Source: Micavibrio sp. UBA2638 (GTDB taxonomy: Bacteria; Pseudomonadota; Alphaproteobacteria; Micavibrionales; Micavibrionaceae). From it: a DNA stretch of 64,000 nt. The DNA lies in NCBI GenBank assembly GCA_002359735.1, contig DENS01000018.1, forward strand, positions 52,819-116,818, in the 5' to 3' direction. The notes below the pieces were generated by a model. That model had not been told where the DNA came from. It made no database searches and saw nothing but the letters and a program-made list of their open reading frames with translations. The translations under genes were made by a program, and so were the position numbers. Each line of letters opens with the position of its first letter. The first letter of the stretch is position 1. This document shows, piece by piece, positions 12,586-29,625 of the stretch.

Positions 12586-12714
12586 TCTTTTGATATTGAT
12601 TTTCCTTAATATATCTTTTACTGTCCTTTTTTACAGAATAGGGATTGCTCTTGATCAAAAATTGTTTTACGGTCTCGGTAATCAATAAAAATATAGAAAT
12701 AGGGAATGTTTGTT

Positions 12715-13824
12715 ATGGGAGAGTCAGCCGATCAGGACGCGTTGCGTTCAGACCATATATCTGAAGATGAATTGAATATTATTGCCGCCGATGTGGATCT
12801 GGCATCAAAAAAGCTAAATAGCGTTCTTGATGAGGTCCGTACCGTCGTTTGGGGGCAGGATGATGTTATTGAGCTGACCCTGACTTGTACGTTGGCTGGA
12901 GGCCATACGCTTTTAGAAGGTTTGCCTGGCCTGGCGAAAACGCGTTTTCTGCAAAATATGGCTCCGATCTTATCCTTGGATTTTAAACGGGTTCAGTTTA
13001 CGCCGGATTTGATGCCGGGCGACATTACCGGCTCTTTAATTCAGGATAAAGACAATGATGGCTTTAAGTTCGTAAAAGGCCCAATTTTTACACAGTTTTT
13101 TATGGCCGATGAGATTAACCGCGCCGGGCCGCGAACGCAGTCGGCCTTGCTGGAGGCTATGGCGGAAAAGAAAGTCAGTGTGGATGGTAAAACGCATTAT
13201 CTGCAAAACCCGTTTCATGTTGTGGCCACACAGAACCCGTTGGAACAAGACGGCACGTATCCCTTACCAGAAGCGCAGCTCGACCGTTTCCTGATGAAAA
13301 TTAATCTGGACTATCCAGATCGTGAATCGGAACGTGATGTTATGCTGAAAACCACAGGAAGTTCTGTGAAAAAATATTTGGCATTAAAAGAGAAGGCGCA
13401 AAATCCAGATGAAGATTTACGTGTTCGAACCGAAGGGGGCAACGATGTACATGTGGAGCAGGTTCTGGATAAATTTGACCTGATACAGATGCAGGAACTG
13501 GCAAAGGTTCTGCCTTTAAGCGAGAGTTTTGTTTCTGCGGTTTTGGATATTGTGCGCCATGCCCGCCCGGATGATCCGAATGCATCTGATTTTGTGAAGA
13601 ATAATGTGGAATGGGGCCCGGGCCCACGGGCAGAGCAGGCATTCGCACAGGCTGCGCGCGCACGCGCATTAATACATGGGCGCTTAAGACCAGATTATGA
13701 TGATATTCGTGCTTTGGCCAAACCTATTTTGGCCCACCGTATGGGCGTGGATTATGCGGCGCGCTCGAATGGAAATACGGAAGAGGTTGTTATCGATCAT
13801 TTGCTGGAACAGCATTTGAGCTAG
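12715..13824 (+). CDS. MoxR-family AAA+ ATPase
   Basis: Walker A-like GLPGLAKT, Walker B FMADEINRA and the MoxR C-terminal helical domain (GPGPRAEQAFAQAARARALIHGR ... ILAHRM) are present. The ORF opens at 12706, but AGGGA at 12701-12705 is better spaced for the ATG at 12715. Confidence 0.9.
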   Translation: MGESADQDALRSDHISEDELNIIAADVDLASKKLNSVLDEVRTVVWGQDDVIELTLTCTLAGGHTLLEGLPGLAKTRFLQNMAPILSLDFKRVQFTPDLMPGDITGSLIQDKDNDGFKFVKGPIFTQFFMADEINRAGPRTQSALLEAMAEKKVSVDGKTHYLQNPFHVVATQNPLEQDGTYPLPEAQLDRFLMKINLDYPDRESERDVMLKTTGSSVKKYLALKEKAQNPDEDLRVRTEGGNDVHVEQVLDKFDLIQMQELAKVLPLSESFVSAVLDIVRHARPDDPNASDFVKNNVEWGPGPRAEQAFAQAARARALIHGRLRPDYDDIRALAKPILAHRMGVDYAARSNGNTEEVVIDHLLEQHLS

Positions 13825-13968: not shown

Positions 13969-14832
13969 TTATCCTTGTTCCGGGACAATGCGCGCGGCTT
14001 CCCTGGCTTCGGCTTCCCGCTGGTATTGACGCTTCATCTTGATGGTCTCTTCATTGACGGGATCGGTTTTGTAATTCCCAGTGAGGGAAAAGGACAGCAT
14101 ATTAAGCCCGGCTCTTATGGCTTTTTCAGACGCTTCCGGGTCGGTCAAAATGGATGACCAGGCGCCGGCCCAGTTATTACTGCCAATAATCACTGAGGTA
14201 GAGCTACGCTCTCCTAAGGCAGGATTGTCGCTCTCGACCCATACGGGGCGATCTTGCACGCCGGGTAATGTGGCGGTTAGATAAAAAGATTGTGTCAACG
14301 CATGACCTTCCTGCAGAATTTCAGGTTTGCTGATTTGTAAATCGTTCAACATTGTCTTTAATGGCTGCGAATTATTAACGCGGTTATCCAGGACATCAAA
14401 CGCAATTTCCCCGCCATTGGCTAAATAACTTTGTACTTTAAGACGTGCCTGCTCTGACAGGCGGGGCGTATCGTCCGTTATCTGAAATAAAATGAAGGGA
14501 AAAAGTGAAAGGTCATCGGTTTCAATGTCGAGGCCGACCACACCTGCGGGTTCAATCGATGTGCGGCGATGACTTTCAACTGCTAATGCGCTTAACCCTC
14601 TCTCGGCCAGTGTATTATTAGAACTGGAAGCGGAGCGAATATAGGCAAGAAAAATGTTATCGGCATACTGCCCGGCATTGGTTTGCATGCGGGAATGGAT
14701 TTGCAGGAATTCTTTTTGTGTCGTCATGGGCTCAACGGCATCATTTTGTAATGTATCGGCCTGACTAGTCTGCAATGGAAAAGCTGCCGCGCTAAAGAGC
14801 ATGAATGCTGCGGTTGCAGATTTCAATTTCAT
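13969..14832 (-). CDS. DUF4159-like exported protein (Bat/MoxR cluster member)
   Basis: 287 aa with a signal peptide (AAFMLFSAAAFPLQTSQA). The core DDLSLFPFILFQITDDTPRLSEQARLKVQSYLANGGEIAFD matches my recollection of the DUF4159 pattern. Confidence 0.7.
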   Translation of the reverse strand: MKLKSATAAFMLFSAAAFPLQTSQADTLQNDAVEPMTTQKEFLQIHSRMQTNAGQYADNIFLAYIRSASSSNNTLAERGLSALAVESHRRTSIEPAGVVGLDIETDDLSLFPFILFQITDDTPRLSEQARLKVQSYLANGGEIAFDVLDNRVNNSQPLKTMLNDLQISKPEILQEGHALTQSFYLTATLPGVQDRPVWVESDNPALGERSSTSVIIGSNNWAGAWSSILTDPEASEKAIRAGLNMLSFSLTGNYKTDPVNEETIKMKRQYQREAEAREAARIVPEQG

Positions 14833-14977
14833 GATATGGTCCCTGTTTAATTATTTTTATGCTTTGTCTTAGCACAAGGATTGTCTTAATGGCAATATTT
14901 CGTAAAAAAATTATAAAAAATATTGACGTTTGGAGCGAAAATCGTTAGCCATAAGATATAACAGGGAAATAAAAATT

Positions 14978-17338
14978 ATGTCTCATAAAAGAGCATTAAA
15001 ATCGGAGTTGGCCGGTGCCGCTCTCGCAATTGGCGTGTTATCCGCCGCCCCATCATTCGCCGATGAACCGTCTTCAGAAGCCGTTGCGGATTCGAACCGG
15101 CAGGTCATGAGTGAACAGGATGGCGGCTCCTTCAATGTTGTGCAAAACATTGATCCGTATAATCCGATTGTTCCTGATGGGGTTCTTTGGGGCTTGGCCG
15201 GACTTATCGCGTTAAGCGGCGCTTACCGCATTGCCAAAAAGAAAGACGGAGCTTTATCGCGTACATTGGCCATGGCTACCGGTGCTGCAGTTTTAATGCA
15301 GCCCGAAATAATCGCCGAGAAGCGTTTGGTCGAACCGACTGAATTTCTGATTTTTGTTGATAAGAGTGAATCGCAGGAGCTTGATGGGCGCGAAGAGTTA
15401 ACGCATCAGGCCTATGCTGCTTTGGAAAGTAAGCTCCAGGCGTTGGATTATCCTGTTCATATCAGGGCTATTGAGTTTGGCGGGGATGCGGAAGATAAAC
15501 CTCAGGATGGAACATCATTAAGTCAGGTCATGAAATCCAACCTTGATGCTTTGCCTGACGGCCGTTTGGGCGCTGCGTTTGTGCTGAGTGATGGAAGGAT
15601 TCAGGATATCGACGCCGCGTTAGACATACAGGGCATTGATGCCCCGGTTCATGCGTTAATTACCGGGCGTGATGATGAAGTTGACTTTGCGCTGCAGATT
15701 GAGGCTATTCCGCGTTTTGGTTTGATTGAGGACGAAAGCGCGCAGATGGCTATACGTGTTCACAGTGAGGGTGTTCAACAGCATGATGATCTTAGCTTTG
15801 TCGTGACGGTCGCTAATAACGGGGAATATGTTACGCAATATGCGATGCCTGCCAATCAAACCATGAACGTAAAATTACCACAGATTTATACTGGTAAGAA
15901 TAATATCGAATTGGAAATATCGCGCATTCATAAAACAGGTAACGGGGAGCCCTATAGCGCGGTGGAAGTAACGCAGGATAATAATAAAATATCAGCCACC
16001 GTGCAGGGAATTGAAGATAATACCAAGGTTCTTTTGCTTTCTGGAGACCCGTATCAGGGGACAGCTCAGTGGCGTGATGTCTTAAGCCGTGATGCTGCGA
16101 TTGATTTTTCACATTTTGCTTATATGCGTCCGGCTCATAAAGAAGATGCAACGCCTTTACGCGATTTGGCGACCATTGCTTTTCCTGTTCACGAAGTTCT
16201 GAACGAACGCATTGACGAATATGATGTGATTGTTTTTGATGCACGAAGTTACAGCGGGGAAATTCCTTTTGCCTATTTGGATAAAATAAAGGATTTCGTC
16301 AATGATGGCGGGGGCTTGATCATGGTCGGCGCGGATGATCTGGTCGCAGAAAATAGCCTGACCCGGACGTCACTGGGTGAGATATTGCCGATTGTGCCTA
16401 CCAATCAGGTGATTAAACGCGAATACATACCGCAGATTAGTGATGTTGGGGTGCGTCATCCTTTGGGGAGGGCTTTGGGACAGGCTCATGGTGATCCGTC
16501 TGAATGGGGGCCATGGCATAATATAGCCAATATTACGGCCCGTGCAAATGGGCAGGTTTTATTAACAGATCAGATGCACCATCCCTTGTTAACCATTGCT
16601 AAACAGGAAGAAGGCCGCGTTGCGGTCCTGGCCTCCGATCAGGGGTGGCTATGGGCGAGTGGATATAAAGGTGGCGGCCCTGCGTTTGAGCTGGAACGAA
16701 ATTTAGTGTTATGGGCCAGCGGTCATGAAGGTTTTGATGATGAAAATGTCATGATCCGTCATGAAGGTGAGCAGCTGATAATTGATTTGCAAACAATGGG
16801 CGATCAAAGTGAAGAGCTTATTCTGACCGCGCCATCTGGTGCGACAATAAAAACAACGCCGGAAGAATTTGCGCCTGGGTTACGCCGGGCTTTTGTGCCT
16901 GCGGCCGAAGTTGGTGTCTATAAAATTGAACGTACGGGCACATATGCTGATCATGCTTTTGCCGAGGTCGGTTTTGCCGACCGGCTGGAAATGATCGGTG
17001 TCGTATCGGAAACGCAGTATATAGAGCCGTTTACACGTAAAAATAACGGGATTACCGCACGTATGATGAATGGTGGTGGGGATATATCGATACCCGACTT
17101 ACAAGTGGTAGAAAATTCGCAAACCACATCACCAGAGTATATGGCCGTGAAGAAAAGCAATGTAACAGCCCTTCAAGGAACAGAGCGCCGCCCCCTTATT
17201 CCAGATTGGTTGGCGCTGGCGTTGAGTTTGGGTTTGTTTGCCTATGGTTTAAAAAGTGAAGGGGGAAAGTCCTGGAAAAAATCGTTATTCGGGTCGAAAC
17301 GCAACACGAACTCAGAGCCTCCGGCTCCGGGGCTATAA
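14978..17338 (+). CDS. Large exported/membrane-anchored Bat-cluster protein with a glutamine-amidotransferase-like (non-catalytic) module
   Basis: The ORF is open from 14930. The ATG at 14978 is preceded by AGGGA and gives a signal peptide (LAGAALAIGVLSAAPSFA). A GATase1-like segment (EYDVIVFDARSYSGEIPFAYLDKIKDFVNDGGGLIMVGAD) and a C-terminal TM (LIPDWLALALSLGLFAYGL) are present. Confidence 0.6.
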   Translation: MSHKRALKSELAGAALAIGVLSAAPSFADEPSSEAVADSNRQVMSEQDGGSFNVVQNIDPYNPIVPDGVLWGLAGLIALSGAYRIAKKKDGALSRTLAMATGAAVLMQPEIIAEKRLVEPTEFLIFVDKSESQELDGREELTHQAYAALESKLQALDYPVHIRAIEFGGDAEDKPQDGTSLSQVMKSNLDALPDGRLGAAFVLSDGRIQDIDAALDIQGIDAPVHALITGRDDEVDFALQIEAIPRFGLIEDESAQMAIRVHSEGVQQHDDLSFVVTVANNGEYVTQYAMPANQTMNVKLPQIYTGKNNIELEISRIHKTGNGEPYSAVEVTQDNNKISATVQGIEDNTKVLLLSGDPYQGTAQWRDVLSRDAAIDFSHFAYMRPAHKEDATPLRDLATIAFPVHEVLNERIDEYDVIVFDARSYSGEIPFAYLDKIKDFVNDGGGLIMVGADDLVAENSLTRTSLGEILPIVPTNQVIKREYIPQISDVGVRHPLGRALGQAHGDPSEWGPWHNIANITARANGQVLLTDQMHHPLLTIAKQEEGRVAVLASDQGWLWASGYKGGGPAFELERNLVLWASGHEGFDDENVMIRHEGEQLIIDLQTMGDQSEELILTAPSGATIKTTPEEFAPGLRRAFVPAAEVGVYKIERTGTYADHAFAEVGFADRLEMIGVVSETQYIEPFTRKNNGITARMMNGGGDISIPDLQVVENSQTTSPEYMAVKKSNVTALQGTERRPLIPDWLALALSLGLFAYGLKSEGGKSWKKSLFGSKRNTNSEPPAPGL

Positions 17339-17546
17339 GCAAGGAATGATTGGGAGATAGGTCATTAAAAAGTTAGACGGGATATATAATTTTGCAGCGG
17401 CTAGTGTTTTGTCGGCCTCTTTGTTGTCACCTTTATCAGTGGCGGCGCAGGACACCGGTTTGCAAGAACCTGGTCATGATGGCGGAGCTGTGCCTGTCTC
17501 TATGCTGGATCAGGATGACCTATTTGATCAGACTTTTTTCGAGAAA

Positions 17547-19598
17547 ATGGGGTCCCCCATAGACTTTGCATCACCTTGGATGCTGGCCACTCTACCGCCT
17601 GCGTTATTGATTGGCTTTATGTTGATGCGTTCGATTGAACGTAGGCCAAAAGAGGTGAGTTTCCCAGCCATGTTTATTCTGGAAATGCTCGATGATACTG
17701 AGCGTGATCCGGATCGCATGCCCTGGTGGCAGCAAATGATTAATTATGGCGCTATCAGTGCCGCGGTTATGGGGGCGGCTGGGCCAACATGGAATGCCCC
17801 TGACACGTTTTCGGCTGAAGGGCCGGTGATATTAGCGGTTGATAACGGCTGGGATTCTTCTGACAATTGGGACGATGTCATGCAAAAAGCCCGTGATGTG
17901 GTTAAGCAGGCCTATAATGAAAAGCGTGAGATTATTTTGGTTCAGATGGCGGCTCCTGAAAATGCGCAAGGATATTCGATTTCTTCCCCAATGGATGCTT
18001 TAATCGCGCTTCAGTCACTGGAAAACGTTGAGCCTATGCCCTGGATGGTCGATTATACGGCGCTGAGTGAGGGCGTGAATGCAATGGAGAATGGGCAATA
18101 TGGCGGGGCGTTTTGGCTGGGCAGTGGTTTGGCGCATGATGGAGTGCAAGAATTTGTAGCAGAACTACAGAGCAAGGCCCCGTTATATTATTTTGAAAAT
18201 GACAGTGAATCCCTTCCCGTAGTATTGGATGGAGCCGAATTTGATAAGGGGGATTACCGCCTGAGCATTCAGCGTCCGTATGATAGCGATGCATTGGATA
18301 TTCGCGTTGCCGGTTATGCTCAGGACGGTACTATGCTGGCCGCATATGATTATCATTTTTCCGAAGGGCAGCGTAAAATTGATGTGCAGTTTGATGTGCC
18401 TGAATTATCCAGTTCCCAATCGATTTCCAGTGAAATTTTTCGTTTCAGTGTAGAGGGGGAAAAGAATGCCGCCGCACATATCATAGTGGATGATCAATGG
18501 AAACCGCGTTCGGTTGGTCTTGTTGTGCAAAATAGAGCGGAATCAGAATCGTTGCTTAGTGAATCACGTTTTATTAAAACGGCTTTGGCGTCGCATGCGG
18601 AAACAATTTTAGGCGGTGTTGAGGAATTGGTTGAGAGCGGAGATGTCTCGGTTCTGGTTGTACCGGATGCTGTTACTATTTCGGGCGTCGCTGCCACCAA
18701 GATTAAAGATTGGGTCGAACAGGGCGGTACCTTAGTAAGGTTTGCTGGACCGAATATGGCAAGGGATGCGCACACAAATGATCCGTTATTACCATTGGAT
18801 TTGCGTCAGGGCGTTCGGGGGTTTTCGCGGGATGTTTCGGGGATGGCTGCCGCTGGTGTAAAGGGGCGTATCGGCGGGTTTGACGATCAATCACCATTGC
18901 GCGGTATTGCGCGCGATAGTGATATACAGATTGAGAAACAAGTTATGGTGCAGCCGGGGCCTGATGTTGAAGATAAAGTCTGGGCGACACTGGATGATGG
19001 TACGCCGTTGATAAGTGCCGATAAGCGCGGGGAAGGGCAGGTGGTGTTGTTCCATACCACGGCTAACACGGCTTGGGGCGATTTATCATTATCAGATAAT
19101 TTTGTTGATATGTTGGTCGGTATTGTCGCCTCAGCAAAAAGTATTCAAAATGAGGATGACCTGGATATATCAGACATGTCCCCGATGTTAACAATGGACG
19201 GGTTCGGGGTGCTGGGCACTCCCCCTGGATATGCCCAGAACTTGCAATCATTGCCATGCGAAGTATCCAGTGTAAATCCGCCAGGCCTATATGGTGGTTC
19301 CCTTTCCGCGCTTGCGTGCAATTTATCAACTTCTTTAGATGATTTGCAGATAACCGGTGATCTTGATGATAATGTCCAGCGCGAATTTTATGCGGTGGCG
19401 AATGATGGTTATGATCTGAAAGGGGCGGCATGGAGTGCTTTCCTTATCTTGATGTTGGCCAGTACGGCCGTTCTGATGTCGCAGCAGGGAGAGTTCAGTC
19501 GTAAGTCCGGGCGCCGTAATGCGAAAAATAATAAGGCCGGAGGTGATGATAAGCCGGTACATGAAGCGTTTCTTGATAACCCGGAACCGGATATTTAG
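17547..19598 (+). CDS. BatA_N / N-terminal double-transmembrane-domain protein (TIGR02226-like)
   Basis: MGSPIDFASPWMLATLPPALLIGFMLMRSIERRPKEVSFPAMFIL fits the aerotolerance-regulator N-terminal domain. A later GATase-like segment (VSVLVVPDAVTISGVAATKIKDWVEQGGTLVRFAGP) and a C-terminal TM follow. The ORF is open from a TTG at 17409, so the start is uncertain (ATG 17502 is also possible). Confidence 0.7.
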   Translation: MGSPIDFASPWMLATLPPALLIGFMLMRSIERRPKEVSFPAMFILEMLDDTERDPDRMPWWQQMINYGAISAAVMGAAGPTWNAPDTFSAEGPVILAVDNGWDSSDNWDDVMQKARDVVKQAYNEKREIILVQMAAPENAQGYSISSPMDALIALQSLENVEPMPWMVDYTALSEGVNAMENGQYGGAFWLGSGLAHDGVQEFVAELQSKAPLYYFENDSESLPVVLDGAEFDKGDYRLSIQRPYDSDALDIRVAGYAQDGTMLAAYDYHFSEGQRKIDVQFDVPELSSSQSISSEIFRFSVEGEKNAAAHIIVDDQWKPRSVGLVVQNRAESESLLSESRFIKTALASHAETILGGVEELVESGDVSVLVVPDAVTISGVAATKIKDWVEQGGTLVRFAGPNMARDAHTNDPLLPLDLRQGVRGFSRDVSGMAAAGVKGRIGGFDDQSPLRGIARDSDIQIEKQVMVQPGPDVEDKVWATLDDGTPLISADKRGEGQVVLFHTTANTAWGDLSLSDNFVDMLVGIVASAKSIQNEDDLDISDMSPMLTMDGFGVLGTPPGYAQNLQSLPCEVSSVNPPGLYGGSLSALACNLSTSLDDLQITGDLDDNVQREFYAVANDGYDLKGAAWSAFLILMLASTAVLMSQQGEFSRKSGRRNAKNNKAGGDDKPVHEAFLDNPEPDI

Positions 19599-19606
19599 AG
19601 GATAGT

Positions 19607-20551
19607 ATGGCAGAAGCAAAGAATGTAGATAATTTGGATACGGTTCTTTCCAGGGCTGATCATACTTACTCTAAACTCCCTCAGCGCTTGCGTCTTCAGG
19701 TAGAGGAACTTGTCAGAGGGTTGGCGCAATATGGTCCGCGTAAATTGAATCGGAAGGGCGCCGGTATGGAATTTATTGAAGCCCGTGATTTTCACCCTGA
19801 TAAAGATGAGGTTAAAGATATTAACTGGCGTATGAGTGCGCGCGCTGGAAAAAATATTGTTGTCGAAAAAGAGGCCGAAGTTCGTCAGCATTTTTATCTA
19901 TGGCGCAAGGGAGGGGGAAGCGCCAATTATTCATCGAATCCAAAGGTCCTGCCAACAGTTAAGGAGGCAACGGAGGTTATGCTTCTTGCCTTTGCCAAAC
20001 ATTTGGCGCGCAACGATGAATTGATAGGCGTAATGGATAGAAAGGGTACATATACCGGTGGCCGTGTTCCGGGTAATGTGGCGCACCATCTACAAGATGT
20101 AAATATTTTAACTGGTGATGTGCCCAATTTATATCGTAAATTGCCCAAAAACAGTACTGTCGTTTTGTTCAGCGACTTTTTGGAAGATGATCCATCATCG
20201 TTGGTTGATGCGCTTGATAATCTTCAAGGCCAAGGGTTGCGAGGTTTCATGGTGATGACCTTAGACCCTGAAGTTTTGGAGTTTAAGAAACATAAGGGGC
20301 ATTTGGAATTTCAGGATATGCGCAACGGCGGCATAACAAAAGAATTCAGTAAGGCTGAATCGCTGCAAAATGAATATGTGCACCGTATTGGTCAATATGT
20401 GAACTGGGTACAAAAATTGGCGCGAAATGCTGGTTACAAGTTTATACTTCAGCGTACGGATCAACCATTAAGTAATGCATTATTACAGATATACGGTTTA
20501 AAGAAAATGTCGCGGGATCACTCGCCAGAGCATAGATTGGATCAGGGATGA
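19607..20551 (+). CDS. DUF58 domain protein (vWA-like partner of MoxR)
   Basis: 314 aa. The DUF58 hallmark is GAGMEFIEARDFHPDKDEVKDINWRMSARAGKNIVVEKE. A GAGGA RBS lies upstream of the ATG. Confidence 0.85.
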   Translation: MAEAKNVDNLDTVLSRADHTYSKLPQRLRLQVEELVRGLAQYGPRKLNRKGAGMEFIEARDFHPDKDEVKDINWRMSARAGKNIVVEKEAEVRQHFYLWRKGGGSANYSSNPKVLPTVKEATEVMLLAFAKHLARNDELIGVMDRKGTYTGGRVPGNVAHHLQDVNILTGDVPNLYRKLPKNSTVVLFSDFLEDDPSSLVDALDNLQGQGLRGFMVMTLDPEVLEFKKHKGHLEFQDMRNGGITKEFSKAESLQNEYVHRIGQYVNWVQKLARNAGYKFILQRTDQPLSNALLQIYGLKKMSRDHSPEHRLDQG

Positions 20552-22167
20552 GTATATTAATGCGAACAAAATTTCGATCGGCGAGTATGGGGGCCTTTAT
20601 GCTGGGAAGTGTTTTTCTGGCGGGCAATGCGACTGCGCAAGATACTGATGTGTCTGATAAAATTTCCGGGCCGGAAACTAGGCAGGATGAGCCAGTTATT
20701 CGGATGACCTTGCCAAATTTGACCAATCATCCTTTGGCCGGCGGCATCGTATTGCAACGATTATGTGCGACAGATGGTCTTGATGAAAAAAAATGTGATG
20801 ATGTAGAGGTCTTTATTGAACCGCCAGCGTTGGAAAATCCATTGGGGCAGGTAATTCATGCCTTCAGACGGGAATTGGCGGTGGATGATTTAGACGCCGC
20901 GCCGAGGGTGGCTGACGATCTGCAAACCTTTATTAATGAACGCGGCGGGGAATTTGATAACCCGCAATCGTTGACGCGTTTGATTGAAATTCAGCAAGAT
21001 CTGGATCAGGGAATTAAAGCGCAGGATTTGGATATTCTTGATCAGGTCGTGCAGGATTTCTGGACGCTGATTGTGCAATTGGAAGAAGATATGCTGAGCG
21101 AGGCTGAAAAGGCGTTACGCGATGCGCAAGAGGCATTGAAAAAGGCTCTGGAAGAGGGCGTTAGTGAAGAGGAGTTGAAAGAGCTGCGTGAACAGGCGGA
21201 ACAAGCCATGCAGGACTTTATGGAGGAGCAGCTGCAAAAAGCTGAAGAAAATCAACTCAGCCCGGAAGATAAGGCGGCCTTGGAAGATATGCAGAAAATG
21301 ATGGAAGAACTGCAAAAAATGATGGAAAAAATGGGCCTGAGCCAAGAAGAAATGGCCAAGTTGATGCAGGAAATGATGCAGCAAGCCCAGCAAAGCCAGC
21401 AGAACCAGCAGGGGCAATCGCAAAGTGGCGAGCAGCAGGAGATGGACTATCAGAAAATGTTAGAGCAGATGCAGCAAAAAATGCAGCAGATGCAGCAGAT
21501 GCAGCAGAATATGAATGACCTAAAAGACATTATGGAGGATCAGAAAAATCTGCGTGAAGAAACATTCAATGAAGCCCTGCAAGATAATAAGGATCAGCAG
21601 CAAAACCAAAATCAACAACAGCAACAGCAAGATCAACAGCAACAGCAACAAAGTCAGTCGCAGCAAAATCAAGATAGACTGTCGCAAAAACAAGAGGAAA
21701 TCGCCAAAAAGTTGGAAGAGTTGTTGAAAAAGATGCAGCAGCAAAACCAGGATCCCAGTGAGCTTGAAAAAGCCAGGGAAGCCATGCGGCGCGCGCTCGA
21801 GGATTTGAAGAACGGTGAGGAAGGGCAAGCTGTTCCCGATCAGGATGAGGCGCTGGAGTCTATGAATAATGCGCAAAAGCAAATGCAGAAGCAGATGATA
21901 CAGCAGATGATGCCGGGCGGGCCGGGCCCTAGCGGTACTGGCCCCGGTTCCATGCCGACAGCATTACCGCCGCGTGATGTTCCGGGGGTGGATAATGATG
22001 GCCGTATACGGGAATCTGGAAACCCGAATGATAATTTAAACATATCGCCGGGTGAAAGTGGACAAGAGCAAAAACGGGTCCGTGATCGTATCCGCCGTCA
22101 AATTGACAAAGGCGGCAGTGAGTATCTGGAACATCTTTTAAATGGCAGTGACGGCCCGGATCTATAG
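20548..22167 (+). CDS. C-terminal-half homologue of DUF4175/TIGR02302 (alphaproteobacterial Gln-rich low-complexity protein), here with its own signal peptide
   Basis: 539 aa. The ATGA start overlaps the DUF58 stop. The signal-like N-terminus is SMGAFMLGSVFLAGNATAQ. Blocks remembered from the C-terminal part of full-length DUF4175 proteins are present: LTNHPLAGG, FWTLIVQLEE, VSEEELKELREQAEQAMQDFMEE, a poly-Gln tract, and the terminal SEYLEHLL. Confidence 0.7.
   Translation: MSILMRTKFRSASMGAFMLGSVFLAGNATAQDTDVSDKISGPETRQDEPVIRMTLPNLTNHPLAGGIVLQRLCATDGLDEKKCDDVEVFIEPPALENPLGQVIHAFRRELAVDDLDAAPRVADDLQTFINERGGEFDNPQSLTRLIEIQQDLDQGIKAQDLDILDQVVQDFWTLIVQLEEDMLSEAEKALRDAQEALKKALEEGVSEEELKELREQAEQAMQDFMEEQLQKAEENQLSPEDKAALEDMQKMMEELQKMMEKMGLSQEEMAKLMQEMMQQAQQSQQNQQGQSQSGEQQEMDYQKMLEQMQQKMQQMQQMQQNMNDLKDIMEDQKNLREETFNEALQDNKDQQQNQNQQQQQQDQQQQQQSQSQQNQDRLSQKQEEIAKKLEELLKKMQQQNQDPSELEKAREAMRRALEDLKNGEEGQAVPDQDEALESMNNAQKQMQKQMIQQMMPGGPGPSGTGPGSMPTALPPRDVPGVDNDGRIRESGNPNDNLNISPGESGQEQKRVRDRIRRQIDKGGSEYLEHLLNGSDGPDL
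21375..21680 (+). repeat. Gln-rich low-complexity coding tract (CAG/CAA runs) including a perfect (ATGCAGCAG)x3
   Basis: It encodes QQAQQSQQNQQGQSQSGEQQ ... MQQMQQMQQ ... QQQNQNQQQQQQDQQQQQQSQSQQNQ. The 9-nt unit atgcagcag is repeated three times at 21481-21507. Confidence 0.9.
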
Positions 22168-22200
22168 GGCAGGTGTACAAAGGGGGCCATTGCGCGCATG

Positions 22201-22246
22201 TGGCACGGCTTTTTGCCTAAAATAATGGTCCGTGCCATGTTTTCTT
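22201..22246 (+). terminator. Possible terminator in the 100-nt gap between the convergent DUF4175 halves
   Basis: tggcacgg (22201-08) pairs with ccgtgcca (22230-37), followed by tgttttctt. The 21-nt loop is long, so this is tentative. Confidence 0.35.
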
Positions 22247-22267
22247 GGGTAATCTAAATGGAATTTA

Positions 22268-23422
22268 TTAAGGCTCAAGCGGAGCGAAGCTGATGGGGGC
22301 CTCAATAGGTGGAAGTTGCGCAGAGGGCAGTTTTGATGTTTTAAAGCTACCGTTTTCGCCTTGTATGCCCGTTTCTAATTGGGCGCTGGTAATGCCGTAA
22401 TCATCATCGAGTACATATTCCAAATCGTTTAGCGTCGGGTTATCGGCATCATTTTTAATGCCAAGAATGGTGACGGAGGGTGGGTTGTCCAGGGCAACTG
22501 AAAAATTCAGGTTATGCCCTTCAATATTAAGTGCGATAGTCTCATGTGATCCGTCAAATGAGATTGTGTATTGATATGCCAGGCTATCTGTCGTTGGGGG
22601 CGTGGCAGATTGCTTGTCATCGGGTTTTATGGCGCCGCCATTGAGTGTTATGCTTCCTGGGCGCTCTTGTGTCGTGATATAAAGGGTGCTGCCTTCATGT
22701 ACATCAAGAACTGACTGGTTTTCGATTGCGTGTTGTATCATGTCAGGAAGATATCCTTGCGCGCTATCGATGTTTTGTGGCGGTGTAATCCAAGCCTTAT
22801 ACATTAATGGCGGCGGCGGGGCCTGCCAATGTAAGGCTTCATTGAATTTGCTGAAAGCACCATCGCCATATAGCCCACCAGTGATGGCGGTTGCAACTAG
22901 AATAGATGTGTGGATGGCCGCTTTGGGTTTGTTGTCCTTATAGTATGCTCCAAAGCCTGATCCGAGTTTTTCGCTCTCAATCTTTTCTGCCCATTCTTTC
23001 CATATACGTTTTTGCGCGAGTTCAAAAATTTGTTGTGAAGGTTTGGAATCGCCTTTGCTGGGTTCATCGTCCAGTTTTTTTGCGGGGGTTTCTTGAGCCG
23101 CGATGTCGTCGTCAATAGCGCGGATCGCCTCTTTTCGGTTTGCGAATGGACGTTTGTCTGCGCGCACAAAGCTGTTGGTCAGGGAGTATGCGGTCGTTAG
23201 AAGGCTTGCTGCTCCTGCGGCCATGACGGCCATTTTTTGTCCTTGCGGAGGAAGGTGGTCCCAAAGGCCGATCAGAGCTGTGAATGCGCCGCCACTGACC
23301 AATGCGGGCGGCATAACCATGGGGACAATTTTTTCATTGATCATTGACCATTTACGGCGGCTAACCGCTTTGTTAAAGCGTCCTTTAATTTCGTTAATGC
23401 TCAAATCCTGTTGTTCATTCAT
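22268..23422 (-). CDS. N-terminal-half homologue of DUF4175/TIGR02302 (TM helices plus first periplasmic region)
   Basis: 384 aa with two or three TM segments (MVMPPALVSGGAFTALIGLW, MAVMAAGAASLLTTAYSL, ILVATAITGGLYG). WQAPPPPLMYKAWITPPQ, DNPPSVTILG and LDDDYGITSAQLE parallel remembered N-half blocks of DUF4175 proteins. Confidence 0.65.
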   Translation of the reverse strand: MNEQQDLSINEIKGRFNKAVSRRKWSMINEKIVPMVMPPALVSGGAFTALIGLWDHLPPQGQKMAVMAAGAASLLTTAYSLTNSFVRADKRPFANRKEAIRAIDDDIAAQETPAKKLDDEPSKGDSKPSQQIFELAQKRIWKEWAEKIESEKLGSGFGAYYKDNKPKAAIHTSILVATAITGGLYGDGAFSKFNEALHWQAPPPPLMYKAWITPPQNIDSAQGYLPDMIQHAIENQSVLDVHEGSTLYITTQERPGSITLNGGAIKPDDKQSATPPTTDSLAYQYTISFDGSHETIALNIEGHNLNFSVALDNPPSVTILGIKNDADNPTLNDLEYVLDDDYGITSAQLETGIQGENGSFKTSKLPSAQLPPIEAPISFAPLEP

Positions 23423-23432
23423 GCCGCTTACC

Positions 23433-24401
23433 TTATGCCCCCAATTCGGGTGATGGGTATTGTTTGTTTACGTTCCGCATTGCCGCGAATTGTCTGCACT
23501 GAAATTGCTGGCACTGATACGGGTCTTGTATATCCAGGCTGGCCGTTTGCATGATGACTTGCCGACGCATGGCCAAAAGAACCTCATCTTGATAGGCGGC
23601 CATACCGCCGGCATTGCCTCTGGTATTATTGATTTGTGTTTGGCGCTCGGTTGCAACTTCGTGCACAAAGCCGCCGGATAATGGGCGCCCATTTTTTTTG
23701 ATATAGGTATTCGGGGGTGTTATCAATGCGCGTTCGGCCCAGTAATTCAGATTGCCGTAATCTGTTTTTGTCGTTAATGCGTAAACCGTTGCTTCATGAT
23801 GTTCGGCTAGAATTTTATTCCATTCTCGCACTTTAACGGTGCTACTGGTCCCATCGGTCAATATGTTTAGGCTGTTATGCTCTGATTTCCAACGTGTTGC
23901 AAGATTTTGGAAACAATATCCTGCATTTTCCATGGCGCTGGCATGTTCCGTTCCGCCAGTACCTCTGCGTTGTATGTTCAGAATTTCTTGCGAGAAGCGT
24001 AAGAACTTTGTTCTGTCGTCATCTCTGAAATCGACCCAGGGAATGACAAGTTCCGAGCGATGGTCAAAATCGACAACGCATAATGCAATCGACTGCGGTC
24101 CGCCGGGGTAGAAGATGGATTCCCGGAAGTCATCTGATGCTATAGCGTTTGCCAGGGATTCAAGCTGAGCGCGGTATTCACCCGTTCTATCTTCAATGGA
24201 CCCGGAAATGTCGATGGCGCAAACGATGGCCATACCAATATCTTCGTTGCTGTTTGTTGCCAGTGTCGGGTGAAAATAGGTGGTTGTTGGAACCACTGTA
24301 GGAGGTTCTTCGTAGTAATTTGGTTGCCCAAATGCTCTGCTGCTTGCAAGCGTTAAAAGCCCCGCCCCAGCGCCAAGTAAAAATTGTCGTCTGTTAAGCA
24401 C
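23433..24401 (-). CDS. DUF1194-like vWA-fold protein with a twin-arginine signal
   Basis: 322 aa with a Tat motif (MLNRRQFLLGAGAGLLTLASSRAFG). A MIDAS-like segment reads AIVCAIDISGSIEDRTGEYRAQLESLANAI ... IALCVVDFDHRSELVIPW ... GGTEHASAM ... NILTDGTS. Its stop lies 10 nt before the start of 22268..23422. Confidence 0.7.
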   Translation of the reverse strand: MLNRRQFLLGAGAGLLTLASSRAFGQPNYYEEPPTVVPTTTYFHPTLATNSNEDIGMAIVCAIDISGSIEDRTGEYRAQLESLANAIASDDFRESIFYPGGPQSIALCVVDFDHRSELVIPWVDFRDDDRTKFLRFSQEILNIQRRGTGGTEHASAMENAGYCFQNLATRWKSEHNSLNILTDGTSSTVKVREWNKILAEHHEATVYALTTKTDYGNLNYWAERALITPPNTYIKKNGRPLSGGFVHEVATERQTQINNTRGNAGGMAAYQDEVLLAMRRQVIMQTASLDIQDPYQCQQFQCRQFAAMRNVNKQYPSPELGA

Positions 24402-24505
24402 GATGTTAGTCCCTGTTCATTGCCAGATTTTCATCTGTCATAATTATTTTTTAATAGATCGCACCTTAGAGACTTTTTTAAGGAAATACAATGATTTTTA
24501 TTTCC

Positions 24506-25126
24506 TTAATCATTGTTATTGCCGAGCCCTTGAAAAAAGATCTGCATGAGCCTATGTGCGTCTTTTTTCATTTTAAAACGATTTGGGTTTTCCAGATATT
24601 CATGCGCAATTCCTTTCATATAGCAATTGATGCTTAATGTTAAAAGTTTCGGATCGGCATTTGCCGGCAATGTGCCTTTTTTTTGTGCTTTTTCAAAATA
24701 GCGACAAAATGCTTTTTGTTTTTCTATCTTTTGCTGCGCGTGTTTGTCTTTAAATTCTTCCAAGTCCCCGGAATAATCGCATTTAATAAGAAATAATTTT
24801 ATGGCCTGTTGTTTTTGTATGTCGATCTCTAGATCTTGCAATAACTTAATGCAGAGTTGTTTAAGTTGATCCAGCGGGTTCGGGTGATCCTTTTCTAAAT
24901 CGTCCAATATGATTTCAAGCAAGGGCTGGTGGAGGTTTTCAAATAAAGTGTCAAAGATCTGTTTTTTATTACTGAAATGCCAATAAATGGCGCCCCTTGT
25001 TACATTTGCTGTCCGGGCTATATCTTCGAGGGTTGTTTTGGATACGCCTTTGTTGCAAAACATTTGCGTTGCGGCATTCAAGATATCTTGTCTCGTTTGT
25101 TCAGCGTCCTCTTTTGTGCGGCGCAT
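24506..25126 (-). CDS. TetR/AcrR-family transcriptional repressor
   Basis: 206 aa with an N-terminal HTH (TTLEDIARTANVTRGAIYWHFSNKKQIF). It is divergent from the RND efflux operon. Confidence 0.9.
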   Translation of the reverse strand: MRRTKEDAEQTRQDILNAATQMFCNKGVSKTTLEDIARTANVTRGAIYWHFSNKKQIFDTLFENLHQPLLEIILDDLEKDHPNPLDQLKQLCIKLLQDLEIDIQKQQAIKLFLIKCDYSGDLEEFKDKHAQQKIEKQKAFCRYFEKAQKKGTLPANADPKLLTLSINCYMKGIAHEYLENPNRFKMKKDAHRLMQIFFQGLGNNND

Positions 25127-25146
25127 AAATTTTTACTCTCGCTTGG

Positions 25147-25175
25147 TTGACAGCATACATACATAAATGTATGTT
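25147..25175 (+). promoter_or_regulatory. Sigma70-like promoter (TTGACA-17-TATGTT) overlapped by an 8-2-8 perfect palindrome, the likely TetR operator
   Basis: TTGACA at 25147-52 and TATGTT at 25170-75. The palindrome ACATACAT-AA-ATGTATGT spans 25157-25174. Confidence 0.5.
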
Positions 25176-25270
25176 TATACTATAGCGTTACATTATATGT
25201 TTGTCTAGTTTGTAGCTACAGTCATATTCGGCTGCTTTATTCGCAGGGGTCTATAAAAAAGGTATTGAAG

Positions 25271-26470
25271 ATGAAAAAAACAGCGGTTATAGGCATCATT
25301 CTTTTGTTCTTAGCGGCAGGCGGAGGGTGGTATTTTTGGGCTGCTAATGGGGACAAAAGCGCAGAGAAAAGCCCTGCAGAGCGGCCGCCTCAGGCCGTTT
25401 CTGTGCTGGAATTAGAGACGACGAAAATTCGTTACGATTATTCTTTACCGGGGCGTATATCCCCGTTTCGGCAATCACAAGTACGTCCGCAGGTCGATGG
25501 TATTATTACCGAACGTTTATTTGAAGAAGGGGCCGACGTTAAAAAGGGTCAGCAACTCTATCAAATAGATGATGCGCGTTACAAGGCTGCATTAAACAGC
25601 ACCATTGCAGATTTAAAAAGCGCGGAAGCAAATGTAAAAGCCGTTGATGCAAGGGCTAAGCGCTATAAAGATCTTGTGAAAATTAATGCAGTTAGCGAAC
25701 AGGAATATGATGATATTGTTGCGCAGTTAGATCAGGCGAAAGCATCTGTGGCCGTAGCGCAAGCTGCTTATGATCTGGCGCAAGTCAATCTGGATTATAC
25801 AAAGGTATACGCGCCGATTGATGGCCGGATTAGCAAGTCTTTTGTTACCGAGGGCGCATTGGTAACCGCCAATCAAAGTCAGCACTTGGCCACAATCACG
25901 CAATTGGATCCTGTATATGTAGATATGCAGCAATCAGGAACTGAAGCCATGCATATACGGACCCGTATGATCGGGCAGGATGTCGTGCCTGTTACACTGG
26001 TTCTGGATGAAAAAACCGGCCAATCGTATGGCAAGGAAGGTATGCTGAAATTTTCTGAAGTTACAGTTGAGGAAACAACAGGATCAGTCGCTTTGCGTGC
26101 CTTGATGCCAAATCCGGACGGGATATTATTGCCTGGACTGTTTGTGCGGGCCACCATAGCGCTGGGGGAGGAAGATGTCATTTTGATTCCGCAGCGAGCG
26201 GCAACACGTACCCCTGATGGTAAGCTCACGGCTTGGATTGTGGACGAGCAAAATAGAGCGCAGCCCAGAGAATTAAAGGTGGATCATGCCTACGAAGACA
26301 ATTGGATTGTCACCGATGGCGTGAAAGAGGGCGATAGAGTGGTTGTGCTGGGGTATCAGAAAATTGGCCCCGGCATGGTCGTGGCCCCGACCAATTGGAA
26401 ACAGGCATCCGTTAAACCCAACACTGATCAAGGTGGTGAGGTGGATTCTGAGAAAAATAAAGAAGAATAA
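25271..26470 (+). CDS. RND efflux periplasmic adaptor (AcrA/MexA-like MFP)
   Basis: TM/signal segment, SLPGRISPFRQSQVRPQVDGII, coiled coil, YAPIDGRISK. The track starts at TTG 25265; the ATG at 25271 is more likely. Confidence 0.9.
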   Translation: MKKTAVIGIILLFLAAGGGWYFWAANGDKSAEKSPAERPPQAVSVLELETTKIRYDYSLPGRISPFRQSQVRPQVDGIITERLFEEGADVKKGQQLYQIDDARYKAALNSTIADLKSAEANVKAVDARAKRYKDLVKINAVSEQEYDDIVAQLDQAKASVAVAQAAYDLAQVNLDYTKVYAPIDGRISKSFVTEGALVTANQSQHLATITQLDPVYVDMQQSGTEAMHIRTRMIGQDVVPVTLVLDEKTGQSYGKEGMLKFSEVTVEETTGSVALRALMPNPDGILLPGLFVRATIALGEEDVILIPQRAATRTPDGKLTAWIVDEQNRAQPRELKVDHAYEDNWIVTDGVKEGDRVVVLGYQKIGPGMVVAPTNWKQASVKPNTDQGGEVDSEKNKEE

Positions 26471-26482
26471 GGATACAGAAAA

Positions 26483-29400
26483 ATGGCCCGTTTTTTTATT
26501 GACCGTCCGGTATTTGCTTGGGTGATTGCAATAATTATTATGCTGGCCGGGATTTTATCCATTCGGGCCCTGCCTGTCGAACAATATCCTAAAGTGGCAC
26601 CGCCAACGGTAAGCATTAATGCATCTTATCCAGGCGCGTCGGCAGAAACGGTAGAGAATTCCGTTACGCAGGTTATAGAACAGCGCCTGACCGGTATTGA
26701 TTATCTGCGGTATTTTACCTCCAACAGCTCCGATGGGTCTATGAGCATTACTCTAACATTCGAACCCGAGGCAGACCCCGATATTGCGCAGGTGCAAACC
26801 CAGAATAAAGTGCAAGGAGCGGTGACTAAGCTGCCTCAGGAAGTGCAGGCTCTTGGTGTTACGGTCACAAAATCAAATGACAGCTTCTTGTTAGTGGTCG
26901 GGTTTTACTCTGAAGATGCCAATATGACCGAGCACGAACTAAGCGATATGCTCGTTTCCAATTTTCAAGACCCGATATCCCGTATTAATGGTGTCGGTAG
27001 TGTACGCGTTTTTGGTGGTCAAAACGCAATGCGCATCTGGCTTGATCCGGCGAAATTGTATAGTTACAACTTGACGCCGCTGGATGTGCAGAATGCTGTT
27101 CAGGTGCAAAATACTGATATTTCTGCCGGGCAGTTGGGCGGAATGCCGGCCGCGCCAAATCAGCAGATTAACGCAACGATTAAGGCACAAGCGCGTTTGC
27201 AGACGGTCAATGATTTTGAACGTATTGTTTTGCGTGTAAATACCGATGGTTCCCAGGTTCGTCTAAAAGATGTTGCAAAAATAGAGTTGGGATCGGAAGA
27301 TTATGCGCGTATCGCCCGCTATAAACGTCAACCCGCCGCCGGTATGGCTGTGACATTGGCCACAGGTGCGAACGCTTTGGAAACAGCAGAGGCCGTTAAG
27401 GAGCGCGTGGCCGAGTTGGCCGAGTTTTTACCGAAAGGCGTTAAAATTATCTATCCGATTGATGCGACACCATTTATTGAACTTTCGATTGAATCGGTTG
27501 TGCATACATTGGTGGAGGCTGTGATCCTGGTATTTCTTGTGATGCTGTTATTCTTGCAAAATTTTCGGGCGACGCTAATCCCGACCATTGCGGTGCCAGT
27601 TGTTCTTCTGGGTACATTTGCAATCTTATTGGCTTTCGGATTCAGCATTAACGTGTTGACGATGTTTGCTATGGTCTTGGCGATTGGTTTGTTGGTGGAT
27701 GATGCGATCGTTGTTGTCGAAAATGTTGAGCGCATCATGAGTGAGGAGGGATTGTCCCCCAAAGAAGCCACGAAAAAGTCCATGGACCAGATTACAGGCG
27801 CATTGATTGGGATTGCTGTTGTGTTGTCGACGGTGTTTATCCCGATGGCGTTCTTTGGTGGATCCGCAGGGGCGATTTACAGGCAGTTCTCTATTACAAT
27901 TGTATCCGCAATGGGCTTGTCGGTTTTGGTTGCACTGATTTTATCGCCATCTCTATGTGCGACATTGCTGAAAAATGAAGCGGGTGCAAAACGCAGATCT
28001 GATACCGGCTTTTTTGGCGTTTTTAACAAATATTTTAACAAAGGCCGTGACAGTTACCAAAAAACAGCCTCGTATATGGCGGCGCGTACCATGCGCTTTT
28101 TCGTGGTCTATATTGTTCTGGTTGGTGGAATGATGGCCATATTTGTGCAATTGCCCGGCGCATTCTTACCTGAAGAAGATCAGGGGTTTATGTATATGAT
28201 GGTAAACACCCCGCCTGGCTCCACTGCTGAACGCACTTTGGAATCGGTTAAACAGGTCGAAGATTATTTTCTGGAGGAGCAAGGGGATAATATTGAACAT
28301 CTTTTCACAGTAGTTGGTTTCAGTTTCGCCGGATCGGCTCAGAACGCGGCTTTTGGCTTTGTCGGCCTGAAGGATTGGGAGGAGCGCCCGGACGATAATC
28401 AGAGCGTCTTTTCCATTGCCCAACAAGCTGGCCCGGCTTTGGCCAGTATTAAAGATGCGATGGCGTTTGCGTTTTTTCCGCCGCCTATTCGCGAACTTGG
28501 TAACGCCTCTGGCTTTGATTTTCAACTGGTTGACCGTACTGGTAACGGGCATGAGGCCTTGATGCAGGCACGCGGCCAGCTTTTAGGCGCGGCAGCGCAG
28601 AATCCGAAACTGACTGGTGTGCGCCCCAATGGTTTAAGTGATGTGCCACAATATAAAATTAATATTGATAGCGAGAAAGCCTCGGCATTAGGATTATCAC
28701 TCAGCGATATTAACCGCACCCTCCAGATTGCGTGGGGGTCTAGCTATGTAAATGATTTCGTGGATCAGGGGCGCATTAAACGCGTTTATCTTCAGGCTGA
28801 TGCTCCGCACCGCATGATGCCGGAAGATCTGAATAATTGGTATGTCCGCAATGCTGATGGCGAAATGGTACCTTTTGATGCTTTTTCCAGTGCAGAATGG
28901 ACATATGGGTCACCAAAACTGGAACGTTTTAATGGTAAGGCTTCTATTAATATTCAAGGCGGTGCCGCAGAAGGGGTGAGTACCGGGCAGGCCATGGAAG
29001 AGATTCTAAAAATCGTTGAAGAATTACCGGACGGATTTGGGGTGGAATGGTCCGGCATTTCTTATGAAGAACGGGCCGCGGGATCACAGGCACCGGTGCT
29101 ATATGCTCTGTCAGTTTTAATTGTATTTTTATGCCTGGCCGCACTCTATGAAAGCTGGGCCGTTCCGTTTGCTGTAATGTTGGTTGTTCCTCTCGGTATT
29201 TTTGGTGCGGTGGTCGCGGCTTATTTTGCGGGATTGCCGAATGATGTGTATCTGCAGGTGGCATTGTTGACAACGGTTGGGCTGGCCTCGAAAAACGCAA
29301 TTTTGATTGTAGAATTTGCCAAGGAGTTGAAGGAAAGTGGTCATAGTTTGCTGGAGTCAGTTGCGATAGCGGCGCGCCAACGTTTTCGTCCGATTTTGAT

Positions 29401-29623
29401 GACATCCATGGCCTTTATGTTAGGGGTTACGCCTCTGGCTTTGGCAAGCGGGGCCGGTGCCTCCAGTCAAAACGCGATTGGTATTGCTGTGATGGGCGGT
29501 ATGGCGGCGGCGACATTTCTGGCGATATTCTTTGTCCCAATGTTCTATGTTATGGTTGAAAAGCTGTTCCATCGAGATAAGGCCGAGGCAACTGAAAAAG
29601 CTGAAGCGAATAAGAAAGATTAA
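26483..29623 (+). CDS. RND multidrug efflux permease (HAE1, AcrB/MexB-like)
   Basis: 1046 aa starting [23 protein letters not shown], with 12 TMs and two large periplasmic loops. [16 protein letters not shown] is present. Confidence 0.95.
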
Positions 29624-29625
29624 CG

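Follow-up and report, generated by a model that had tools for sequence, protein, structure and literature searches.

Proteins of the DUF4175/TIGR02302 family are widespread alphaproteobacterial envelope proteins of unknown function. Full-length members, such as a Roseibium protein (P0033, 863 aa) and RSP_0730 of Rhodobacter sphaeroides, are single polypeptides of 820–925 aa in which transmembrane (TM) helices are followed by the WxxPPxYT, DDYG and HPLAG blocks, Gln/Glu-rich helices and a C-terminal YLERLL. In R. sphaeroides, RSP_0730 belongs to a set of genes associated with CenR binding; CenKR is an essential two-component system of this species and governs cell division and envelope biosynthesis (PMC9275681). 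In the stretch of DNA analysed here (the window; 64 000 nucleotides of contig DENS01000018.1 from the marine bacterium Micavibrio sp. UBA2638) the same blocks are found in the same order, but they are shared out over two genes on opposite strands, an N-half and a C-half, and the C-part carries a signal peptide. The full-length proteins and the split pair are alike in their predicted envelope location, and both are of uncharacterised function. The arrangement very likely reflects an ancient fission, now fixed, by which the DUF4175/TIGR02302 gene became two genes that are expressed separately: the two are complementary halves of one family with one break site, both genes are intact and under selection, and the layout recurs in many assemblies and lineages.

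Other described systems resemble this locus in part. The TIGRFAM description of TIGR02302 mentions a Bradyrhizobium japonicum form in which two frames stand in tandem on a single strand, a case of one species; having two frames is common to both cases, whereas the frames here are convergent, the C-half has a signal peptide and the arrangement is fixed across a clade. The textbook case of one protein from two opposite-strand genes is the split dnaE of cyanobacteria (dnaE-n and dnaE-c). There too both halves are maintained, but they are rejoined by a cytoplasmic split intein; the present pair lacks an intein, and any contact between its halves would be non-covalent and periplasmic. AdvA of Acinetobacter baumannii has a DUF4175 hit on an N-terminal region with two TM helices and is linked to the envelope and cell division (PMC7481262). 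Compared by description, AdvA is gammaproteobacterial and unsplit, and its resemblance to the pair is partial and N-terminal. The neighbouring genes, finally, recall the Bat or MoxR–DUF58–BatA 'aerotolerance' clusters of Bacteroides fragilis (BatI), Borrelia (bb0170–bb0176) and Rhizobium leguminosarum (RL3499–RL3502) (PMC5700661, refs 24 and 25), and in other bacteria clusters of this type have been linked with aerotolerance and an intact envelope (PMC5700661 and references cited there). A MoxR AAA+ ATPase, a DUF58 protein, a protein with the BatA N-terminal double-transmembrane domain and a VWA-like protein are common to those clusters and to the window; the descriptions of the clusters list no DUF4175 component, their gene order differs from that seen here, and here, unlike there, the sole recognised VWA-like protein is an exported DUF1194 protein. 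A literature search on DUF4175/TIGR02302 found nothing on a split form or on Micavibrio. The two-gene form is new within a known, uncharacterised family and is not a new kind of system.

A sequence-only reading of the window that preceded this work had described an open reading frame (ORF) of 539 aa at 20548–22167 on the plus strand and one of 384 aa at 22268–23422 on the minus strand, converging across 100 nt, and had taken them for the C-half and the N-half of one gene. The ORFs and the stop-to-stop distance (22168–22267, 100 nt) are exactly as it gave them, and all of the motifs that it quoted are in the translations: KAWITPPQ, DNPPSVTILG and LDDDYGITSAQLE in the N-half, and LTNHPLAGG, FWTLIVQLEE, poly-Q runs, SEYLEHLL and the leader SMGAFMLGSVFLAGNATAQ in the C-half. 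Its expectation of complementary, non-overlapping coverage of the family profile was borne out by three hidden Markov models (HMMs). The N-half matches positions 2–325 of the 825 of Pfam PF13779 (DUF4175) with E = 2e-24 and 86.1 bits, and the C-half matches positions 350–806 with E = 5.5e-55 and 187.2 bits; both exceed the gathering cut-off of 27.3 bits, and E-values of this size exclude a chance match. In NCBIfam TIGR02302 (851 positions) the N-half covers 2–335 and the C-half 371–836, again with no overlap, and in a local HMM of 870 positions, built from 99 full-length homologues and also used to classify the retrieved proteins, they cover 9–356 and 388–867. The TIGR02302 scores of 40.8 bits for the N-half and 111.1 bits for the C-half sum to 152, against a curated cut-off of 394.3, and under NCBI's rule the two are divergent relatives and not TIGR02302 equivalogs. 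The TIGR02302 architecture, with two or three N-terminal TM helices and a long extracytoplasmic Gln/Gly-rich region, is present but distributed over two proteins, and in place of a single polypeptide of ∼850 aa spanning the whole profile there are two chains (384 and 539 aa). All 64 kb of the window were scanned in six frames and gave no further DUF4175-like ORF.

Annotation of the pair is sparse. The NCBI product name of the N-half is just 'hypothetical protein', and the precomputed Pfam column is blank for the C-half both in the window lineage and in its relatives at 50% identity (together, the window, L001 and L012–L018; L and P numbers denote loci and proteins), despite the hmmscan match to PF13779 at E = 5.5e-55. 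As the halves are annotated as 'hypothetical' or lack a Pfam hit in several lineages, comparative studies would wrongly score the family as absent. Restriction to Alphaproteobacteria is one of the criteria for TIGR02302, and NCBI taxonomy files Micavibrio under Bdellovibrionota; genome phylogenies place Micavibrio in the Alphaproteobacteria.

The break had been placed between the DDYG and HPxAG blocks, and it does lie there, in the variable linker between an '...LPxIxLP' block and a 'DLTxHPLAG' block, at an identical site in every split member examined. Standalone N-halves end at local-HMM positions 355–380 and standalone C-halves begin at positions 371–391 (most at 386–390); the halves abut in the family profile, with about ten linker positions missing. 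A chimera of the N-tail and the mature C-start gives one continuous alignment to PF13779 positions 277–381. About 29 residues of N-half tail and ∼50 residues of C-half leader lie outside the family profile. A natural cut at one defined point shows which parts of the protein can fold and function as separate chains. The 100-nt gap itself is not a conserved element, because the gaps in relatives (89, 83, 44, 15, 10 and 2 nt) shrink almost to nothing. It contains a 9-bp hairpin (22200–22208 and 22230–22238) followed by TTTTCTT on the plus strand; this candidate terminator was rejected, as the hairpin is no better than in shuffled sequence (z = 0.6) and is not conserved in relatives.

The N-half protein of the window is recorded on at least 22 contigs, independently assembled, from Tara Oceans, JGI and NCBI; the six that were fetched match the window at 100% identity across the two halves and the adjoining genes. 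Convergent pairs with the same neighbours are present in seven lineages: that of the window, L001/L002/L004/L018 (50–53% identity to the window; L004 is an 'uncultured Micavibrio sp.'), L005 (44%), L003 (27%), L008 (the P0020 lineage), and L020 and L021, which make up a second sub-clade from metagenomes. The split-layout lineages overall span 27–58% identity. In the complete genome of M. aeruginosavorus (CP066681.1; L006:10001–16194) the two halves are likewise separate genes, with the C-half (733 aa) directly after the DUF58 gene. An 825-aa AAA gene on the opposite strand lies between the halves in this genome, and there is no DUF1194 gene nearby. The C-half protein of L007 is identical to that of L006, and its N-half has been called as 314 aa instead of 372 aa.

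Searching 1.84 billion representative proteins with a profile of seven N-halves gave 206 matches, of which the best ∼65 are almost all 350–430 aa long and rank above proteins of 830–1054 aa. Classification with the local HMM yielded, after removal of redundancy, 92 standalone N-halves (about 90 distinct clusters at 50% identity), 18 standalone C-halves and 139 full-length proteins. One bipartition of a neighbour-joining (NJ) tree of the N-region, computed with capped distances, comprises 89 of the 92 N-halves and one full-length cluster (Jaccard 0.94–0.95; 0.89–0.95 in bootstrap replicates), and in the C-region tree all 18 C-halves form an exact clade. The pattern fits one old fission inherited by a large Micavibrio-like clade; the split is a trait of this clade and not an event in this genome. 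An unsplit gene among relatives had been suggested as a check; one full-length gene, P0283, falls in the split clade. P0216, P0220 and P0270, which are of N-half length (293–418 aa), group with full-length TIGR02302 proteins outside the split clade; each may be a fragment from the end of a contig, a gene with a frameshift or a split that arose independently, comparable to the tandem Bradyrhizobium case.

Both halves are intact and under purifying selection. Nonsynonymous and synonymous differences per site (pN and pS) were compared between the orthologues of L001 and L018, which have 78–83% protein identity; L012–L017 (100% identical) and L004 (98.7% identical to L001) are uninformative for dN/dS. 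The N-half has a pN of 0.122 and a pS of 0.653 (nominal dN/dS 0.09), and the C-half a pN of 0.108 and a pS of 0.722 (nominal dN/dS 0.05); both are within the range of the neighbouring genes (dN/dS 0.015–0.15). The first 50 codons of the C-half, leader included, have a dN/dS of about 0.08. The earlier view that both pieces are maintained and not decaying is thus upheld.

The AlphaFold2 (AF2) model of the N-half has a mean predicted local distance difference test (pLDDT) score of 89.9. Two long N-terminal helices (9–56 and 59–86) are followed by an insert (96–149), a third long helix (165–197), a β-rich region (207–340) and a tail ending in LPSAQLPPIEAPISFAPLEP. TM helices are predicted within the three long helices, at about residues 33–55, 62–85 and 169–190, from their hydrophobic cores, and together with the Lys/Arg distribution these give a predicted N-in/C-out topology with three TM helices and a cytoplasmic helical insert. 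The β-domain would then be displayed in the periplasm, and it is probably an immunoglobulin (Ig)-like β-sandwich; Foldseek gave weak generic Ig-like matches for the N-half model (E at least 0.04), and a sequence search of the PDB for fold matches found nothing. Past the DNPPSV block the model has just two full strands (316–324 and 332–339) and a few isolated bridges. An AAGG motif resembling a ribosome-binding site lies 9–12 nt 5′ of the N-half ATG.

The model of the C-half is less confident on average (mean pLDDT 78.4). Residues 1–46 are disordered, and a β-hairpin (67–89) directly after HPLAGG leads into a long all-helical region (98–454), rich in Glu, Gln and Met with poly-Q/E/M repeats; beyond residue 454 a disordered Gly/Pro stretch precedes conserved C-terminal helices ending in YLEHLL. 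Foldseek found no significant fold match for this model. Two cysteines (residues 73 and 83; window 20750–20808) flank the turn of the predicted hairpin, LCATDGLDEKKCDD; they are present in the window lineage and closer relatives (P0008–P0015) and absent from more distant C-halves, and may form a periplasmic disulfide.

The N-terminus of the C-half, which had been called signal-peptide-like, has the design of a Sec-type signal peptide over residues 1–30 (20548–20637, plus strand, read by hand from the sequence): an n-region RTKFR, an h-region MGAFMLGSVFLAG and a predicted cleavage site ATA|Q after residue 30. The features were scored by hand as a positive n-region, an h-region of 10–15 residues and a small-x-small motif, and 18 of 18 standalone C-halves show the same design, in which an n-region with a net charge of +2 to +4 is followed by a hydrophobic core and a small-x-small motif. 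The mean 11-residue hydropathy of these leaders (n = 18) is 2.03, compared with 0.94 for the equivalent stretch of full-length proteins. Because everything beyond the third TM helix of the intact protein would be periplasmic, a severed C-part needs an export signal of its own, and the leader is in keeping with the N-in/C-out topology of the N-half, which puts the severed part in the periplasm. We infer that the C-half is exported to the periplasm through this peptide, and the split clade points to the C-part having to be periplasmic. The family thereby offers a clean example of how a fission becomes fixed, the severed exported part requiring, and possessing, a signal peptide and a translational context that are both new.

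The C-half starts within an ATGA overlap (20548–20551, plus strand, read from the sequence) with the stop codon of the DUF58 gene (19607–20551, plus strand; PF01882, E = 2.4e-8) immediately 5′ of it. The coupling proposed from this overlap also finds a parallel in relatives: the 4-nt overlap recurs in L003, L008 and L020, the gap is 2 nt in L001 and 19 nt in L006, and a DUF58 gene directly precedes the C-half in every split-clade locus examined. Translational coupling of the C-half to DUF58 thus seems probable. The plus-strand genes further upstream encode a MoxR-type AAA+ ATPase (12706–13824; PF07726 AAA_3, E = 7.3e-59; also AAA_lid_2 and bpMoxR), a GATase1-like/DUF7408 protein (14930–17338; PF07090, E = 4.5e-9; PF24157, E = 1.6e-6) and a membrane protein with the BatA N-terminal double-transmembrane domain (BatA-N; 17409–19598; PF07584, E = 5.3e-9; TIGR02226, 24.2 bits against a cut-off of 23.05); a DUF4159 gene (13969–14832; PF13709, E = 6.1e-21) lies between the first two on the minus strand. 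The start of the BatA-N gene is ambiguous, as the longest ORF runs from a TTG and gives 729 aa and calls on identical DNA are of 712 or 729 aa (L012–L016). On the other side, a gene for a DUF1194 (VWA-like) protein (23433–24401, minus strand; PF06707, E = 1.2e-10) ends 10 nt before the N-half begins, and the two genes are probably co-transcribed. This protein has weak matches to VWA (E = 0.0011, 19.7 bits against a cut-off of 23.8) and to TAT_signal (E = 0.0086, below the cut-off), and its leader, RRQFLLGAGAGLL, is twin-arginine-like. The pair of DUF1194 followed by N-half is also found in L001, L003, L018 and L021, and in most lineages sampled the N-half comes after a DUF1194 gene.

The order MoxR, DUF4159 (opposite strand), GATase1-like, BatA-N, DUF58 and C-half is kept across the split clade. 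It differs from the MoxR–DUF58–BatA order of Rhizobium RL3499–RL3502 and from the Bacteroides Bat operon, and this unusual order suggests further rearrangements at the locus. At ten loci with full-length genes, flanks of up to 10 kb contain no gene of the MoxR cluster; two of the ten read argH-lptM-lysA-TIGR02302, and the others lie elsewhere, whereas the split pair is embedded in the cluster. The linkage of DUF4175 to a MoxR/Bat-like cluster is specific to the split clade and is the sole functional lead, a guilt-by-association link to MoxR–DUF58–BatA that is absent where the gene is intact. From gene order, the split DUF4175 protein is probably a periplasmic component or client of a MoxR–VWA type system. 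The sequence-only reading had proposed the split itself; that it is ancient, clade-wide, under selection and tied to a MoxR envelope cluster goes beyond it.

These observations can be assembled into the following account. The N-half would stay in the inner membrane by its three helices with the Ig-like domain facing the periplasm. The C-half, having lost its covalent anchor, would reach the periplasm by a Sec signal peptide acquired at fission, and would presumably work there with the N-half, either in non-covalent association or side by side. In the split clade both halves would have been drawn into the envelope cluster of MoxR, DUF4159, GATase1-like, BatA-N and DUF58 genes, with DUF1194. The weakest step is the origin, which may have been an inversion with breakpoints in the linker and just past the 3′ end of a gene, still intact and convergent with DUF58, after which a new start, leader and stop signals would have evolved. 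The geometry, with DUF58 then the C-half on one strand meeting DUF1194 then the N-half on the other, fits a single inversion. As the split is an old, clade-wide trait, no trace of the rearrangement is to be expected in the DNA here; no flanking inverted repeats or mobile elements were found around the segment, the best inverted arms being of 25 nt with 72% identity.

Several points weigh against an ancient, fixed fission as just described. One is the full-length, 1054-aa P0283 (L010:10001–13165), an unsplit gene nested in an otherwise split clade: it pairs with the standalone N-half P0178 (L019:1537–2703; 46% identity) in 78 of 79 NJ bootstraps, which conflicts with a single irreversible fission. 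The junction of P0283 contains no relic signal peptide and its locus (L010) no MoxR cluster; the gene may have arisen by re-fusion or be a paralogue that was retained, or it may point to a second fission. In M. aeruginosavorus the N-half (372 aa) is 3 kb downstream of the C-half and on the same strand, so the two need not be adjacent. None of the relatives examined has an intact gene convergent with DUF58, the ancestor that an inversion needs. Signal-peptide cleavage and topology are predictions only, and the nominal dN/dS ratios come from a dS near saturation, which leaves the contrast of pN with pS reliable but not the exact ratios.

An ancient fission also has to be set against other explanations of two half-genes lying exactly back to back, particularly in a metagenome-assembled genome, where a mis-oriented segment could have split an intact gene during assembly. 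The chance of such an artefact is close to nil: at least 22 independently assembled contigs, drawn from separate Tara, JGI and NCBI samples, carry identical DNA over both junctions, which rules out the inversion artefact that the sequence-only reading had named among the things that would refute it, the same layout is found at 27–58% identity and in M. aeruginosavorus as separate genes, and each half has its own stop codon, leader and tail. The pair might alternatively be the decaying fragments of a gene inactivated recently by an inversion, and scores of 111 and 41 bits, far under the TIGR02302 equivalog cut-off of 394, would suit this. Decay is very improbable, however, given ORFs that remain intact over deep divergence (about 90 N-half clusters at 50% identity), pN values far lower than pS for each half and for the leader, a conserved signal peptide and confident AF2 models. 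Rejoining after translation, as by the split intein of cyanobacterial dnaE, would also account for complementary halves on opposite strands; the extra residues (about 29 on the N-half and about 50 on the C-half) are too short for intein halves, the leader of the C-half is disordered in its AF2 model and serves as a signal peptide, and Pfam finds no intein domain, so that we regard this as scarcely credible.

The remaining alternatives concern the inversion itself. Flipping about 20550–22250 was claimed to restore one minus-strand gene. It does make the halves colinear but it does not yield a single ORF, because the stop codon and 29-residue tail of the N-half and the ∼50-residue leader of the C-half, with its signal peptide, stand in between. 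A reversible DNA-inversion switch (phase variation) between a fused and a split gene would draw on that same colinearity; with this obstacle, with inverted arms as poor as those above, with no recombinase gene adjacent and with a single orientation across every lineage and at least 22 assemblies, such a switch is extremely improbable. A different path to the same end state carries more weight: either an intact gene beside the operon was duplicated in inverted orientation and reciprocal loss left the N-part in one copy and the C-part in the other, or a gene co-directional with DUF58 and located after it was inverted twice in succession. Fission classically proceeds by duplication and subsequent degeneration, the unusual order of the cluster points to more than one rearrangement, and the full-length genes elsewhere are unlinked to the cluster, so that a relocation is needed anyway. 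Against this, more events are required than for one inversion, and neither two overlapping partial copies nor, within the cluster, a tandem N-then-C pair turned up in any lineage. We consider a path of this kind unlikely, though far from negligible.

If the ancient fission is accepted, a more specific and doubtful extension, which we think unlikely, can be proposed for the break. The N-half has two full strands past DNPPSV and the C-half one hairpin before its helices; on this ground the break might lie inside a second Ig-like β-sandwich and not at a boundary between domains, the halves reassembling in the periplasm by strand complementation as a natural split protein, and the capture of the pair by MoxR, DUF58, BatA and DUF1194 genes might mark DUF4175 as a periplasmic substrate or scaffold of an AAA+/VWA envelope machine. 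An hhalign internal-repeat test of the first β-domain against the junction region gave no signal (probability 0.7%), and when the N-tail/C-start chimera and the junction region of full-length proteins were scanned with Pfam for a named Ig-like family, DUF4175 was the sole match. Strand complementation and MoxR capture, if true, would give the first functional handle on this family, which in Rhodobacter belongs to the CenKR regulon.

Rfam and tRNA scans of the window detected nothing. Beyond the DUF1194 gene, a TetR/AcrR-family repressor gene (24506–25126, minus strand) is divergent from a resistance–nodulation–division (RND) efflux operon of three genes, encoding a membrane fusion protein (MFP; 25265–26470), an AcrB-like protein (26483–29623) and an outer-membrane efflux protein (OEP; 29626–31116). 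This TetR/RND unit (24506–31116) adjoins the DUF1194/N-half unit, and its position is kept in L001, L004 and L018, relatives at 50% identity. An A/T-rich palindrome, AAGGAAATA...TATTTCCTT (24472–24506, minus strand), lies in the 104 nt that separate the stop of the TetR gene from the start of the DUF1194 gene; it could be a terminator-like hairpin or an operator.

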